The notes under the pieces: generated by a model
The model's database searches: none
What the model was told of the DNA's origin: nothing
The model's input: the letters and a program-made list of their open reading frames with translations, nothing else
Assembly: GCA_040767195.1 (NCBI GenBank)
Contig: JAXGPA010000001.1
Location: 160,001-224,000 of the forward strand
DNA from: Syntrophales bacterium
GTDB taxonomy: Bacteria; Desulfobacterota; Syntrophia; Syntrophales; UBA6807
Reading direction: 5' to 3'
DNA length: 64,000 nucleotides
Shown here: piece by piece, positions 55,867 through 63,169 of the stretch
Layout of the letters: every line of letters starts with the position of its first letter
Position numbering within the stretch: position 1 is the stretch's first letter
Program-made: the position numbers and the translations under genes

Positions 55867-57903
55867 ATGGAGGCCAGGCGGTTTTTTCCCTTCCTTTTTA
55901 CAGCCGTTTTTCTCTTCCTTCTGCTTTGCCCTTCAGGCCGCGCATCAAGCGCCGTGAAGGTCCACAGGGATGTGTGGATGAAAAACGAATTCGGTGAAAG
56001 GATCACGCCGAAGGACAATTTCGAGGATCCATACAGTCCCAGAAACACGTGCGGGAGCTGCCACCCATACTCGACCATCACCTCGGGGTTCCACTTCCAG
56101 CAGGGGTTCGACGAAATGAGCGACACCTATGATCCCCGGAAACCCTGGATTCTATCCCCGGGAATGTACGGAAAGTGGTGACCGCCGGCCAATCGGTCCG
56201 GCCGTGCAGCCGCCAAAAAAAACAGCGACCCGAAACAGATCGACCTCACCGCCTATGACTGGATCGGCGGGTTCGGAAAATTGAACCCCGCCAAAAAGAT
56301 CAAGAGCCCGGCCTGCGGGTGGTGCCACCCCGGCGGCGGTTCCATGGAATACGGACGCAGGCCTGACGGGACGCCGGACTTCTCCATGAACCTGATCCAG
56401 GCGGAGAGACGGAACACGAACAGCCTGGACGGGGATTTCATGTCCCTCATTTCACCGGACGGCAAAAGCCATTTCAAGGAAAGCGGGGTCGTGGAGGGGG
56501 ACTGCCTCATCTGTCACACCGGAAGATACCAGTTCGGCAAGCGTAACCAGCAGATCAATCACATGAACTACCGGTGGGCCGCCACGGCCGGCGCCGACAT
56601 CGCAAAGATCGAGGGGTCCATCTTCAAATTCGACAATCCCGATGCCCCCCCGGGTGCCAAGGGTTTCATGGACGGCACCTGGAATTTCTCGGAAAGACCG
56701 AAAGTGACCTACCGATGGGACGACCGGAATCTTTTCAGCCGGGAAGGGCAGCTGAAAGGCACACTGATCTCAAAAACCGTGGAGGTTAAAAACTGCCTCC
56801 AGTGCCACCAGGGACCGGACGCCAAGAAGGTGGGGTGGGTTCACAAACCGGAATTCGACGCCCATTACAAGGCGGGATTCCGATGCACCGACTGCCACGG
56901 TCTGGTGGGAAACACCCGCTACGGCCGCATGGAACACCAGATCGCCAAGGGCTGGCATCCCCTGGGCAGTGTCCGGGACGACCTGGACGGCGTGGACATG
57001 ATGACGTGCCAGGCCTGCCACATCGCGGGCCGGTATCGGCCCAGCCGGCCCGGCCTGCCGGAAAAAGCAAAAGACCCGACGAAAAAGCACGCGGAGAAAT
57101 TCCCCGACGTGGCTTTTCACTTCAACCGGATCAGCTGTGCCAACTGTCACTCCACGGGGCAGCCCGGAATGTCCGGATACCTTCTCGACATGGGACCGGG
57201 GGGTCAGATCTGGTACACCGCGGCCACGCTGGAAACCATAACCTGGTCCGATGATTTCGGGAAACTCGCCCCGAAACCCTGGAAACCCTGGAGCACCCTC
57301 TTCGACGCCCGGAACGGCCTTGGAGAGCAGTACATCCCCCAGGTTCCCAAGGTGTCCCAGTGGTTCGGTGAGAAGATGGACAACCTGGAAGTTCGGCCGA
57401 TCTCTCTCAGGTACGTCAAGAAAGCTTTCGGGACCCTGAATTCCCGAACCGTCGTGGACGTCCGGAACACCGACGGCCAGGCGGTTAAAAAACCCACCGT
57501 GGCCAGGGAAGAGGAAATCCGGGCCATGATCGAGGCCCTGACAGGAATGGGGTTCACCAACGTGGTGTTTGTCTCCGACAGGGTTTACGAGCTGAGAGAC
57601 GGGCAGGTAACCGCCTATGAAGACCCGCTGACGGCCCACCCCCACACCTTCCCTGTCCATCACAACATCGTCCCTCTGGACCGCGGGACGACTTACGGGC
57701 AGAAAGGGAAACCGGAGGGCTGCCGGGACTGCCACTGGAAAGACTCGGAATTCTTCACCAAGATGCTCATTCGAAATCCCGGCCGGTTCCTACTGGAGGA
57801 CTACCCGGTACCCCGGGAGCCGAACGCGGAACCCCAGATGATCCCCTGGGGCTTTGACGAGGTCCCTGTTCCCCCGGAACTGAAGGCGAAAAAGGAACCC
57901 TGA
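55867..57903 (+). CDS. Exported octaheme c-type cytochrome with an in-frame UGA at codon 105 (probable selenoprotein, 678 aa)
   Basis: ORFs 55867-56181 and 56281-57903 share a frame, and the 33 codons between them are open. The only signal peptide is in the first part. CxxCH motifs: CGSCH, then CGWCH, CLICH, CLQCH, CTDCH, CQACH, CANCH, CRDCH. Confidence 0.78.
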
Positions 57904-57905
57904 AG

Positions 57906-58673
57906 ATGAAGCGGACCCTGGCCCTGATCGTTCTTGCCTTCCTCGTGGCGGCCATCCCGGAGAAAAGTTTTTCCCAGGAAGAGGCAACGGTCCCGGAGGT
58001 CACCCCGGCGGAGGTCTACCGGAAAATGGCGGAGGGGACACCCCCCCTGCTCATCAATACCATGAGTCTCATTGAATGCCGGGACCACCGGATTCCGGGA
58101 TCCCAGTGCGTCCCCGGGCCGGATGTGGCCGAGCGATGGAAAGGCCCCGAAGACAAGAGCAGTGAAATCATTTTTTACTGTGAAAGCCCGTGGTGCCTCA
58201 GAAGCCACCGGGCCGCCGAAACAGCGCTGAAACGGGGATTCCAGAAGGTGTCCGTCATGACCGGCGGCCTTCCCGCCTGGAAGGAAGCAGGGTACGACGT
58301 CTTTTCAGAGAAACGGATTCCCCGGGTCGGGATCGTTTCCATCAAACCGGCCTTTCTCTCCCAGTGGCTCTCGGGAGGAAACGGCCCCCTCCTTCTTGAC
58401 ATCCGAACCCCCGGTGAGTTCGAGGCGGACCACATGGCGGATTCGGTCAACGTTCCCTTTGAGATTCTCCACCAGGTGTGGCGGGACCTTCCCATGGACC
58501 GCTCCATCGTCGTTATCGACGACCGGGGACATCGCTCCTTTCTCGCCGCCTGTTACCTCTTTGAGAGAGGTTTCGTAGACATCCGTCGTCTTTTCGGAGG
58601 CATGTCGAACTGGAAGGCCTATCAATCCAAAGGAAACCAAAATCATGGCATCGAGAAGACAGCTGAGAATTGA
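57906..58673 (+). CDS. Exported tandem-domain rhodanese (sulfurtransferase)
   Basis: Signal peptide. Domain 1 has HRIPGS, FYCESPWCLRS and GGLPAW. Domain 2 has LDIRTPGEF and GGMSNW, with Asp at the catalytic position (IDDRGHRS). Confidence 0.88.
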   Translation: MKRTLALIVLAFLVAAIPEKSFSQEEATVPEVTPAEVYRKMAEGTPPLLINTMSLIECRDHRIPGSQCVPGPDVAERWKGPEDKSSEIIFYCESPWCLRSHRAAETALKRGFQKVSVMTGGLPAWKEAGYDVFSEKRIPRVGIVSIKPAFLSQWLSGGNGPLLLDIRTPGEFEADHMADSVNVPFEILHQVWRDLPMDRSIVVIDDRGHRSFLAACYLFERGFVDIRRLFGGMSNWKAYQSKGNQNHGIEKTAEN

Positions 58674-60543
58674 AACAGGCCTGGTCATCCCGCTCTTCCT
58701 TTCGGTCCTTTTCTTTCTGGGAAACCTTCCGCCCGCTCACGGGTCGGCGGATCCGGGCCAACCGGTCCTTAACGAGGGCCCCGTAAACTGTCTCGATTGC
58801 CATGATCACTTCCTTTACAGGACGGCCTTTCCCAAATCGGTCCACGGGCCTCTCGGTTGCCTGAGCTGCCACGGCGCGATCGAAGACCGGGAAAAGCACA
58901 TGACGGGCCTGAAAAAGCCGGAACTTCTCTCGTGCGCCCGCTGTCACGAGGAAATCGCCGCCTCCTATGTTAAAAACTACCACTACCTCTACCAGGACTT
59001 TCGATGCACCGACTGCCACCGGGACATCCACGCCGTCAAGCCCCCCGAGGGTTCTCAAAAGCAGGCCGTCCTGAAGCAATGCACCGAGTGCCACGGCAAT
59101 GACGAATACGCCGTTTCCGGCCACGGCCTGGCCGTCCTCGAGGGAAACGAGGACGCCGCCACCTGCTCGGACTGTCACGGCCTCCACAACACCCGGGTCT
59201 ATCACACCGCCCAGGACCTGTACCCCGCCGAGGCCCGGGAGTTCTACAGCCGGACCTGCATTCACTGTCACGGCGACCGGGACATGATGAAGAGAAACAA
59301 TCTTTCCCCGGACGTTGTCCGTTTCTATGAACTGACCTATCACGGCAAGGTCCAGGGCGTGGGCGATCCCAGCCGCGTGGCGGGATGCGCCGACTGTCAC
59401 ACGTCCCACAACATCCTGCCCAAGGACAACCCGGCTTCCACCATCCACCCGGACAACCTGGCGGCCAACTGCGGCAAATGCCACACGGGGTTCCATCCCC
59501 GTTTCGTGGAATACAAGGCTCACCCGGACTTCACGAACCGCCGGGAATACCCGTCCCTTTTCTGGACCAACATCTTCATGGAAGCCCTCCTCGTCGTGAC
59601 ATTCCTTTTCTTCTGGATTCACACGGCCCTCTGGTGGCGAAAGACTTACTGGGACAAGCACGATCTTGAAAGAAGAGGCGTCATTCCCGGCCCGCCTGTC
59701 GCCGGGTCCGAGGGCATTCAGTCCATAAGGCGTTTTTCCCGCCTGGAAGTCTCCCTTCATGTCATTCTCGTGCTTTCTTTCTTCACCCTCGTCCTCACGG
59801 GATTTCCCCTGAAATACTACGACGCCGGCTGGGCGAAACCCATCGTCCACTTCTGGGGTGGCGCCCACAAGGCCGGACTGTGGCACCGCGCCGCCGCCAT
59901 CGTCCTCATCGTTCTTTTCCTCTATGTCCTGGTCCGCTCTCTCCGATACCTCTTCCCGAAAGGCGGGGGAACCCGAGGCTGGAAAGATCGCCTCTTCGGC
60001 CCCGACTCCCTTTTCCCGAACTGGAAGGACTGGGAGGATCTCAAGGCCATGCTCCGCTGGTTCTTCAACCGGGGTGACCGGCCCCGATTCGACCGCTGGT
60101 CCTACTGGGAAAAATTCGATTTTCTCGCCGTCTTCTGGGGAATGACCATCATCGGGGGATCGGGTATTTTCCTCATGGTCCCCGAGTGGACATCCTACCT
60201 CTTCCCCGGGTGGGTCCTCAACATCGCGGCCCTCCTCCACTCCGAGGAAGCCCTGCTGGCGGCCCTCTTTATTTTCACGGTCCACTTTTTCAACACACAC
60301 CTCATCCCGACCAAATTTCCCATGGACAGGACCATTTTTACAGGCCGATACTACCTGAAGGAAATGGCGGAGGAACGTCCTCTTGAATACGAGCGGATGA
60401 AGAAAGAGGACAGGATTGAGTCGCTGAAGCAGAGGCACCCTTCGATCTGGGCGAAGCTCCTGGCCGCCTCGTTCGGTTACACGGGACTCCTTCTGGGGCT
60501 TTTCCTCGCCGCCATGATCCTGTGGACCATCGTCAGGACATGA
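58645..60543 (+). CDS. Nonaheme cytochrome c fused to a di-heme cytochrome b membrane domain (CbcL-like quinol oxidoreductase)
   Basis: Nine CxxCH motifs (CLDCH, CLSCH, CARCH, CTDCH, CTECH, CSDCH, CIHCH, CADCH, CGKCH), then TM helices with His ligands (SLHV, WHR, LHSEEA, VHFFN) and YWEKFDFLAVFWG. Confidence 0.88.
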   Translation: MASRRQLRIETGLVIPLFLSVLFFLGNLPPAHGSADPGQPVLNEGPVNCLDCHDHFLYRTAFPKSVHGPLGCLSCHGAIEDREKHMTGLKKPELLSCARCHEEIAASYVKNYHYLYQDFRCTDCHRDIHAVKPPEGSQKQAVLKQCTECHGNDEYAVSGHGLAVLEGNEDAATCSDCHGLHNTRVYHTAQDLYPAEAREFYSRTCIHCHGDRDMMKRNNLSPDVVRFYELTYHGKVQGVGDPSRVAGCADCHTSHNILPKDNPASTIHPDNLAANCGKCHTGFHPRFVEYKAHPDFTNRREYPSLFWTNIFMEALLVVTFLFFWIHTALWWRKTYWDKHDLERRGVIPGPPVAGSEGIQSIRRFSRLEVSLHVILVLSFFTLVLTGFPLKYYDAGWAKPIVHFWGGAHKAGLWHRAAAIVLIVLFLYVLVRSLRYLFPKGGGTRGWKDRLFGPDSLFPNWKDWEDLKAMLRWFFNRGDRPRFDRWSYWEKFDFLAVFWGMTIIGGSGIFLMVPEWTSYLFPGWVLNIAALLHSEEALLAALFIFTVHFFNTHLIPTKFPMDRTIFTGRYYLKEMAEERPLEYERMKKEDRIESLKQRHPSIWAKLLAASFGYTGLLLGLFLAAMILWTIVRT

Positions 60544-60613: not shown

Positions 60614-61783
60614 TTGAGCGATCATTCCCCGGAAACCGCGGCAGGCGGCATTAAGAAACGGACCCTTCCGGACAGGCTGTTGTCTTCACCAAGGCTTACC
60701 GTCGGCCTTCTCCTCGTCCTGTCAGTGGCATCGATCGTGGGAACCGTTTTCCCCCAGGGGGAACAGGCCCGTCACTTCCTCTCCCGTCTCGGCCCCGCCG
60801 CCCTTTCCTTCGTCGGCTTTCTTCAGCTTGACGACTTGTTCCATGCCACCTGGTACATGTTCCTCGGAGGGCTTCTCGCCCTCAATCTCCTGTTCTGCCT
60901 TTACCGCAGGTGGCCGTCCCTGAAAAAAACCCTTCCCCCGAGGGCTGTCTTCACGAGAGGGCTTTACCGTTTCGTCGTCCACGGGGGCGTCCTGATCATC
61001 CTCGCGGGAGCCGCCTTGAGCCATCTTTTCGGCATCGAGGCCTACATGGAAATCCCCGTGGGTGAAACGGTCGAACAGGCTTTTCTGCGGAAAGACGACC
61101 GCCCCCTGGATTTGGGCTTCCAGGTTCGCTGCGACGCCTTCCATTTTGAACGCTATGAATCGGGCATGCCGAAGGAGTACCGGTCGGAGCTCACTTTTTT
61201 CAAGGATTCGTCACCGGAGCGGAATGCCCCTGTCCGGGTGAACCAGCCGGTTTCGTTCAAGGGCATCACCTTCTACCAGTCGGACTTCCGAAAAATTCTC
61301 AAAGCGCGCCTGGCTGTACGAAACGAAGGCGAGACATGGGAGGTGGAAAGACTCGAAGGCCAGGCTTTCGATCTGACGGGAAAGGGGATGAACCTTTCCG
61401 TCCTCGTCGTTTCCATCATGGAAAACGTCATGACCATGGGGCCCGCCGTTAAACTTCTGGTCCGGTCACCGGAGGGATGCCGGGATCTGTACGTCTTCAG
61501 GGACATCGACCGGTTTCTCGAGAAGATTCCCGATCTTTACGAGCGATACCCCCCTTTCGATCCGGGAAACATCGCACCCTGGCGATTTGAACTGGCCGGG
61601 CTGGAGGAAACCTACGTGACGGGCCTCATGGTGAACAGGGATCCCGGGGCGCCCGTTGCCGCCGGGGGCGCCGCCGTGCTCATGGCCGGGATGCTTCTCA
61701 CCTATTTCAACCGCAAGAGGGAAGATAACGACAGGCGCGGCCCCGCGAAGAAGAACAGGCCAACCCGGGGAGGCGGCCCGTGA
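60614..61783 (+). CDS. resB: Cytochrome c biogenesis system II protein ResB/Ccs1
   Basis: SIVGTVFPQG, NLLFC, HGGVLIIL.G, EYRSEL, VNQPVSFKGITFYQSDF and RDPG motifs. Confidence 0.88.
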   Translation: MSDHSPETAAGGIKKRTLPDRLLSSPRLTVGLLLVLSVASIVGTVFPQGEQARHFLSRLGPAALSFVGFLQLDDLFHATWYMFLGGLLALNLLFCLYRRWPSLKKTLPPRAVFTRGLYRFVVHGGVLIILAGAALSHLFGIEAYMEIPVGETVEQAFLRKDDRPLDLGFQVRCDAFHFERYESGMPKEYRSELTFFKDSSPERNAPVRVNQPVSFKGITFYQSDFRKILKARLAVRNEGETWEVERLEGQAFDLTGKGMNLSVLVVSIMENVMTMGPAVKLLVRSPEGCRDLYVFRDIDRFLEKIPDLYERYPPFDPGNIAPWRFELAGLEETYVTGLMVNRDPGAPVAAGGAAVLMAGMLLTYFNRKREDNDRRGPAKKNRPTRGGGP

Positions 61784-62601
61784 ACACAACCCTTCTTGCC
61801 GGCACCCCCTTCGTTTACCTCGGCGCTTTCCTCATCGACCTGACGGGAAGGGTTACCGGTAAAACCGCCTTGTCACGAACGGCGAAAACAGTGGCAGCGG
61901 CAGGCTTCTGCCTCCACACGGCGGGATTGGCCCTGAGATGGGTGGAATCGTATCACCTCGGCTTCGGTCATGCCCCTCTTTCCAATTTTTATGAATCCCT
62001 CATTTTTTTCTCCTGGGCGATCCTCCTGGCCTACCTTATTCTCGAGTTCTGGAAAAAACCGGGGATTCTCAGTCCCTTCGCCCTCCCCGCCGCTTTTCTT
62101 CTCATCGCCTACGCATCTTACTCGCCGGACGTGGACAGCCGGATTCGACCCCTCATCCCGGCCCTGCAGAGCAACTGGCTCGTCACCCATGTCATCACCT
62201 GCTTTCTCGGATACGGCGCCTTCGTCATCTCCTCCATTTTCGGCCTCCTCTGTCTCATCAAGGGAAACGATCCCCTTTCGACCCGGGACGACATTCCGGA
62301 AAGGGATTCGCTCAGCCTTTATCTCTACCGAAGCGTCGCCGTGGGCTACGTGTTCTTCACCCTGGGCATCATAACGGGGTCCGTCTGGGCCCATTCGGCC
62401 TGGGGGTCCTGGTGGAGCTGGGACCCCAAGGAAACGTGGGCGCTCATCACCTGGATGATATACACGGCCCTGCTCCATCACCGCCTCGGGGGAAAGGACC
62501 GGGCGAAAGGCATGGCTATCCTGTCCCTGGTGGGTCTCGCCAGTGTTTTTTTCACCTATCTCGGGGTGAATTATCTTCCCGGCCTTCACAGCTACCTGTG
62601 A
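61780..62601 (+). CDS. ccsA: Cytochrome c biogenesis system II heme lyase CcsA/ResC
   Basis: HAPLSNFYES, PALQSNWL..H, WAHSAWGSWWSWDPKETW and GLHSY; GTGA overlap with resB. Confidence 0.93.
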   Translation: MNTTLLAGTPFVYLGAFLIDLTGRVTGKTALSRTAKTVAAAGFCLHTAGLALRWVESYHLGFGHAPLSNFYESLIFFSWAILLAYLILEFWKKPGILSPFALPAAFLLIAYASYSPDVDSRIRPLIPALQSNWLVTHVITCFLGYGAFVISSIFGLLCLIKGNDPLSTRDDIPERDSLSLYLYRSVAVGYVFFTLGIITGSVWAHSAWGSWWSWDPKETWALITWMIYTALLHHRLGGKDRAKGMAILSLVGLASVFFTYLGVNYLPGLHSYL

Positions 62602-62965: not shown

Positions 62966-62973
62966 GAAAAGCA

Positions 62974-63138
62974 TGACGGCTTCGTAAAAGTCCATAGGCT
63001 GTGTTGCCCTTCATCCCCCGTCATTGCGACGTACCAATAGGTACGTCTCATTCCTCGGGACTCGGGCGCCTTGCCTCTGGATCTTTATACAAAGCCGTCG
63101 GTAACGGAACATTTTTCGAGTTTTTACGAGTTCATCAA
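62974..63138. mobile_element. MITE-like non-autonomous repeat
   Basis: Left end TGACGGCTTCGTAAAAGTC. Right end reverse complement TGATGAACTCGTAAAAACTC. An internal inverted copy TTTATACAAAGCCGTC and a GACGTACC/GGTACGTC hairpin are present; no transposase. Confidence 0.65.
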
Positions 63139-63169
63139 GCATGACGTCCATGAAAAAGGGGGAAACAGG

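Follow-up and report, generated by a model that had tools for sequence, protein, structure and literature searches.

An octaheme cytochrome of predicted OTR fold in a Syntrophales bacterium, with an in-frame UGA that is almost certainly read as selenocysteine

The window, which is the whole stretch of 64,000 nucleotides that was analysed, contains a gene for a c-type cytochrome with eight hemes that is interrupted by a single TGA. This codon is almost certainly read as selenocysteine by way of a SECIS element within the gene. The product would then be one exported octaheme cytochrome of 678 residues, to which modelling assigns an OTR fold. The original prediction of a selenocysteine at this site is supported by relatives that share the TGA column, by homologues with Cys, by a covarying SECIS, and by SelA and SelB.

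The frame runs from 55867 to 57903 on the + strand, as do all features of the gene and its operon given below. Its sole internal stop is the TGA at 56179-56181, which is codon 105, in the context GMYGKW-TGA-PP. The frame's own terminal stop is also a TGA. There are eight CxxCH motifs in total, at residues 62, 150, 213, 310, 340, 381, 424 and 619. The translation agrees with the original prediction that the TGA divides heme 1 from the other seven. The 33 protein-like open codons claimed past the TGA are there as well, as far as the TTG at 56281, from which gene callers start again.

By eye, an AGGAG resembling a Shine-Dalgarno sequence (55856-55860) lies 6 nt upstream of the ATG, and the hydrophobic N-terminus is a probable signal peptide of about residues 1-27 (55867-55947). 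Together with the one frame and the eight motifs, this N-terminus supports the earlier idea of a single exported octaheme protein. The heme 1 motif is CGSCH (residues 62-66, 56050-56064). The heme 2 motif, CGWCH (residues 150-154, 56314-56328), aligns with OTR heme II, and this is the probable catalytic heme. The motifs for hemes 3 to 8 follow at 56503-56517, 56794-56808, 56884-56898, 57007-57021, 57136-57150 and 57721-57735. The mature chain has no free Cys.

The TGA is not an assembly error, since contigs from runs X4 and X6 cross it and each differ only once, elsewhere (at 56364 and 56248, in that order). Run X6 is from a separate study. The codon is also not unique to this assembly: these contigs agree on it, and 39 other loci share the column. 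Public protein sets store the gene as two pieces, of 104 aa and of 519/540 aa. Contigs from RNA libraries cover it too, and transcription is not deducible from such contigs. A promoter scan upstream of the gene found nothing, and a plasmid search gave no match to it. The best DNA matches among runs are mostly metagenomes from anaerobic digesters and sludge.

A protein search matched 19 of 61 related genomes and 86 of the 401 genomes of the phylum, with the own genome in both counts. The best 30 loci per search were inspected, plus 29 further regions from the phylum-wide list. Among these loci, the 39 with TGA in the same column (L009, which is also L032, L018, L033, L034, L038-L061 and L111-L121) have 28-82% identity. 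Those with genome handles span 36 genomes and 20 families, and the named relatives at 69-82% identity carry the labels Syntrophaceae, Syntrophales and Desulfomonilia. Cys stands at this column in P0021, P0029, L097, L099, L101, L102, L105, L106 and several seven-heme forms. A homologue search of the kind originally suggested thus finds both TGA and Cys at this column.

Some of these loci are peculiar. In L018 (G015:C1:1738409-1740163) both the TGA and the SECIS are still present, but the heme 2 motif is broken (CGWTH) and a segment near the C-terminus is repeated. Seven others (L038, L039, L042, L111, L112, L115 and L121) encode far larger proteins of 1100-1800 aa with the Sec domain, and three of them (L038, L039 and L042) also contain another OTR-like multiheme domain. 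L015 and L024 were dropped as TGA carriers because their single TGA is not internal. P0078 seemed to be a fusion of octaheme and rhodanese, but was set aside, as its sequence looks error-ridden.

The original prediction took Trp, Arg or another non-Cys residue in the homologues as evidence against itself. Such residues partly turned up: in the majority of close full-length homologues the Sec105 column is occupied by Leu, Gln, Ser, Phe, Ala or Gly, while Trp and Arg are absent among the sequences scored. For the 120 best protein matches the counts are Leu 36, Gln 18, Ser 16, Ala 7, Phe 7, Cys 2, ten others and 24 gaps, with the seven-heme forms offset by one column. Databases store Sec forms as cut proteins, which biases this sample. 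All 15 of the N-terminally truncated database matches that were checked have the Sec-clade motif D-x-K-K-x-G.

In a quick tree of 85 rows, rooted at the midpoint only, a single branch with support 93 unites the 19 Syntrophales octahemes that have no thiol at the column, and this branch lies within Sec and Cys lineages. From these sequences the non-thiol forms appear to be a derived clade, in which the partner Lys has been lost too. Given that most close full-length homologues have neither Cys nor Sec, neither the fold nor the three-gene module described below depends on the residue.

The bacterial SECIS consensus, as summarised in a 2026 review (PMC13188914), is a stem of 4-16 bp and a loop of 3-9 nt, with a G in position 1-2, located 16-37 nt after the UGA. 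The hairpin CGGC-CGUGCA-GCCG at 56199-56212 fits these rules for stem, loop, G and spacing. It lies 18 nt past the TGA and has a 4 bp stem and a 6-nt loop, which starts 21 nt after the UGA and has GU at loop positions 2-3.

In the first 29 TGA loci aligned, a codon pairs with the Ala codon three codons on in 29 out of 29. The pairing occurs in the variants GGC/GCC, CGC/GCG and AGC/GCT, where the partner changes at a synonymous site. Over 22 distinct rows, pairing is seen in 93.6% of cells, and both sides have changed in 22 cells. None of 500 shuffles reaches the observed value, and slid controls range over 30-61%. The SECIS core pattern is present in 33 of 37 TGA loci, 1 of 7 Cys loci and 1 of 19 others; ten loci could not be scored, and the scoring is circular for the 29 rows behind the pattern. 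Among later TGA rows, which lie outside its derivation, the pattern is found in 4 of 8. As a background, 8 of the 1518 TGAs that end long frames in the genome have it. In L010 and L023, of which one has Cys and one has Leu, the core is still present, perhaps because Sec was lost recently.

The local hairpin has -6.7 kcal/mol (z 0.78), which is no more stable than shuffles, where the SECIS energy criterion is -7.5 kcal/mol or lower. The 48 nt from the UGA do get to -13.9 kcal/mol, but as another fold. The GC hairpin that had originally been drawn as the SECIS is indeed the minimum-energy fold of naked RNA and outcompetes the conserved hairpin, yet it is not conserved across the family. Covariation was therefore found as proposed, but at 56199-56212 and not at the hairpin drawn. 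If the first 12 nt from the UGA are omitted, the conserved hairpin has a probability of 0.94. A ribosome paused at the UGA would presumably cover those 12 nt.

The genome has SelA and SelB, both above cut-off, as well as four formate dehydrogenase genes with TGA in U-H-x motifs. The assembly yielded neither SelD nor tRNA-Sec, and a relaxed ARAGORN search gave noise. There is also no tRNA-Ser or tRNA-Asn among the assembly's 39 tRNAs. The same-genus genome G001 has both SelD and tRNA-Sec, and SelD is found in 53 of 61 related genomes. The 20 kb around the G001 selD have no close counterpart in the assembly, except for one repeated element. The simplest reading is an assembly gap, because tRNA-Ser and tRNA-Asn are missing too, as is the region in which G001 has its selD. 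The assembly is rated 98.8% complete, and yet tRNA-Ser, tRNA-Asn, tRNA-Sec and selD were not found in it. Genomes with the TGA have SelB in 36 of 36 cases and SelA in 34 of 36. The original expectation that the TGA occurs only in sel-positive genomes thus holds for SelB, but it does not discriminate: genomes without the TGA have SelB in 15 of 16 cases and SelA in 16 of 16.

The missing SelD and tRNA-Sec, and the two separate pieces in databases, are what one would see if the TGA were a true stop in a pseudogene or split gene, or were read as Trp or Cys. This is barely credible. The codon is shared with its covarying SECIS by the other loci, the scored sequences have neither Trp nor Arg there, and the octaheme gene itself terminates on TGA. 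What is missing from the assembly moreover goes together with all tRNA-Ser and tRNA-Asn and the selD region, while SelD and tRNA-Sec are present in the same genus.

The relation with OTR is not apparent from ordinary searches. NCBIfam models gave no family match at E 0.001. TIGR04315 scores 5.4 bits (E 7.8), far from its curated cut-off of 375 bits, and a TIGR04315 profile search of the genome gave no match. PDB searches with the protein sequence and with its alignment did not return OTR. It was found by comparison of folds and of profiles only. A structure model based on 124 sequences has a pLDDT of 94.7, and its only clear structural match is the Shewanella OTR 1SP3 (Foldseek E 1.2e-5; VIA Z 11.7, rmsd 3.8, 325 aligned). 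The VIA runner-up has Z 3.0. The family profile matches that of 23 OTRs with a probability of 98.5, over hemes 4-7. As modelled, the protein has the OTR fold with eight c-hemes.

Canonical OTRs of this phylum often carry a TGA as well. Inspection of 30 such loci showed TGA in 16 and Cys in 14 at N[NS]F[C/U], a position which corresponds to Cys64 of 1SP3. TGA-bearing canonical genes include L068, L070, L071, L076-L078, L084-L086 and L089-L094. Several canonical OTRs have an extra Cys right before heme 2 (NWCRCTSCH), possibly making a Sec-Cys redox pair. A further OTR-like branch, L129 (G252:C7:137843-139042), has a TGA at the Cys64 column (MMESY-U-APP).

Sec105 falls in the Cys64 column both with MAFFT and with hhalign when intermediate families are included (probability 92.9). 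With canonical OTRs alone, hhalign places the Sec region differently (probability 63.6). When the fragment from Pro98 was folded, its first 14 residues had pLDDT below 50. Its sole match was again 1SP3 (Z 3.8, rmsd 4.2, 166 aligned), with Pro98-residue 52 as the first pair, which is too weak to settle the register.

The motif D318-x-x-K321-x-G323 (56818-56835) is by alignment the counterpart of OTR D150-x-x-K153-x-G155, so that Asp318 and Lys321 align with Asp150 and Lys153. In OTR, the pocket of heme II is lined by Cys64, Asp150 and Lys153. Judging from the alignments, Sec105 quite probably replaces Cys64 in the heme 2 pocket, beside Asp318 and Lys321. This would suit the original suggestion of a catalytic residue or heme ligand between hemes 1 and 2, as the OTR alignment puts Sec105 at the catalytic heme. 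Among members with an intact heme 2 motif, Lys321 is present in all 39 scored sequences that have Sec or Cys (3 unscored), and in the absence of Sec and Cys the Lys is kept in 4 of 89 (1 unscored). This covariation represents few evolutionary events, and not 128 independent ones.

The axial ligands of heme 2 are harder to place. In OTR, according to PMC3769277, Lys56 is the heme II ligand. There is no Lys at that column here; by alignment it holds Met100 or Ser97. A multi-family alignment has Met100 (56164-56166) at or near this column, which makes it an uncertain candidate for axial ligand of heme 2. In relatives the Met100 position is Met, Gln, Asn, His or Lys. The 14 conserved His are enough for only seven bis-His hemes. 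In addition, His154 persists in 33 of the 34 relatives whose heme-2 cysteines are gone, which suggests that it ligates another heme and that heme 2 is left without His. It is conceivable, but doubtful, that heme 2 is instead held by Met100 and directly by the selenolate of Sec105. This would be a selenium-ligated c-type heme, and the catalytic centre of a sulfur-respiration module in syntrophs. To our knowledge no natural heme of this type has been described. If true, such a module has so far gone unrecognised; a search of this incomplete assembly for dsrA found none.

Downstream of the octaheme gene lies a tandem rhodanese (57906-58673, PF00581 twice) with a hydrophobic N-terminus, where the first domain has kept its Cys92 (YCESPWC). 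Next is a CbcL-like gene (58645-60543), with nine CxxCH and a cytochrome b membrane domain, an architecture as described for CbcL in PMC9129911. This is followed by a ResB-like cytochrome c maturation protein (60614-61783, PF05140) and a CcsB/ResC cytochrome c synthase (61780-62601, TIGR03144 above cut-off). The order octaheme, rhodanese, CbcL-like is found in 18 of the 19 near-clade loci that reach downstream, with or without Sec. In the remaining one, the contig edge falls inside the rhodanese. Of 17 covered loci, 14 have retained the rhodanese Cys92, and it is lost only beside non-Sec octahemes. Given that some of the 14 are also non-Sec, the rhodanese does not track Sec tightly.

More distant relatives have other neighbours. 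A scan of 20 distant loci found no rhodanese, and in six of them the octaheme is fused to a cytochrome b. In eight of the 20 (L145, L146, L147, L150, L155, L171, L172 and L173), a sister Sec/Cys clade sits with ArsR-, ArsC-, ArsP- or Acr3-type genes, thioredoxins and an alginate-export-type porin.

Upstream of the operon there are a DUF4412 protein (54340-55098, +) and a stand-alone CBM48 domain (55209-55517, -), which were not seen beside homologues. A 6S RNA gene is at 53316-53507 (-), and a partial 16S rRNA gene ends at 49074. Some 170 bp at 62969-63158 are bounded by a short direct repeat and show high contig depth and many loose ends. This is probably a small mobile or repeated element.

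By analogy with known systems, the favoured reading of the protein is a periplasmic selenoenzyme that reduces S-S bonds, fed by the CbcL-like quinol oxidase. We put this at about even odds. The CbcL-like protein would oxidise menaquinol, and the electrons would travel from heme to heme as far as heme 2. There, the Sec105 selenolate would attack an S-S bond in polysulfide, persulfide or tetrathionate, perhaps carried by the rhodanese. Electrons from the heme would then cleave the selenolate adduct, in analogy with what PMC13510729 proposes for MccSep.

The same selenoprotein might reduce or detoxify metalloid oxyanions such as selenite, arsenate or thioarsenate instead. The arsenic-resistance-type surroundings of the sister clade would fit, and selenite is also reduced by MccSep. 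None of the eight window proteins scanned is of that type, however, and the near clade is accompanied by the rhodanese and the CbcL-like protein, so metalloids seem an unlikely substrate. Activity as a nitrite or hydroxylamine reductase, or against nitrosative stress, is more improbable still. The modelled OTR fold and the retained D-x-x-K motif allow for it, and OTR takes nitrite besides sulfur substrates (PMC13510729). The OTR Lys56 column lacks its Lys however, and the rhodanese neighbour and the selenium would point to chalcogen chemistry.

It is also possible that there is no catalysis at all, in which case the protein would be a periplasmic electron conduit for the CbcL-like protein, and Sec105 would merely tune or ligate heme 2. 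Paralogues without Sec, Lys321 or even heme 2 do retain the same operon, and Geobacter CbcL is described as feeding periplasmic carriers. Yet Sec is kept across 20 families along with a SECIS that constrains codons, and roughly 9 kDa of protein per heme is the catalytic class according to PMC7096707, so this too is unlikely. Electrons might even flow the other way, from sulfide or other reduced sulfur to the quinone pool. Sequence does not fix the direction, and the related Cys-heme enzymes TsdA and SoxAX oxidise sulfur. But CbcL is described as a quinol oxidase, and the source runs are mostly from anaerobic digesters and sludge, where oxidants would be scarce, which makes reverse flow very improbable.

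Sec-bearing OTRs are already catalogued; the present branch is a widespread and unnamed one, with an OTR fold as modelled. A GenBank-annotated Sec form of the TIGR04315 octaheme, WP_331457571.1, is in PMC13188914. This 2026 inventory of 119 prokaryotic selenoprotein families has ExtKL and the TIGR04315 octaheme, and in the part used no entry was matched to this branch. A literature search, which covered main texts and mostly open-access papers, found no paper on it. In the literature found, MccSep (2026) is the sole multiheme selenoenzyme characterised. The branch would be a second multiheme selenoenzyme architecture, from at least 20 families of the phylum; protein databases store it in two pieces, and NCBIfam lacks a model for it. 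It suggests that the Cys64 position of OTR is a Sec/Cys redox site. The natural variants with Sec, with Cys, without a thiol and without heme 2 form a series for probing the function of OTR-fold enzymes in cells. For Syntrophales of anaerobic digesters, the protein is a candidate terminal reductase.

The original prediction named Geobacter ExtKL as the precedent, but the closest known system is the OTR family. OTR (Shewanella oneidensis SO4144, PDB 1SP3, TIGR04315) shares the modelled fold over the whole chain, with the Z, rmsd and aligned length given above. Both have eight CxxCH with 7+1 spacing, an aromatic residue followed by Cys or Sec between hemes 1 and 2, and D-x-x-K-x-G after heme 4. 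They differ in that identity is 14-18%, this protein is about 200 residues longer, and Met100 stands in for Lys56. The link from Sec to heme 2 is 45 residues here and 10 in OTR. The SECIS is different, and this gene is linked to a rhodanese and a CbcL-like gene.

MccSep/ExtKL (Geobacter sulfurreducens, NF040886) is likewise a periplasmic multiheme selenoprotein, split at a UGA, with Sec beside the catalytic heme. According to PMC13510729 it has five hemes, Sec325 is on a C-terminal Ig-like domain, and heme 2 is ligated by His122/Cys239. Here, there are eight hemes, Sec105 is near the N-terminus, and the mature chain has no other free Cys. NF040886 is absent from the 12 NCBIfam matches up to E 10. 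Outside both TIGR04315 and NF040886, the protein would thus work like an OTR without being filed as one. The product of 58645-60543, finally, is likened to CbcL of Geobacter sulfurreducens by architecture: both have nine c-heme motifs and a cytochrome b membrane domain. Unlike CbcL, this gene is encoded together with a selenoenzyme and a rhodanese.
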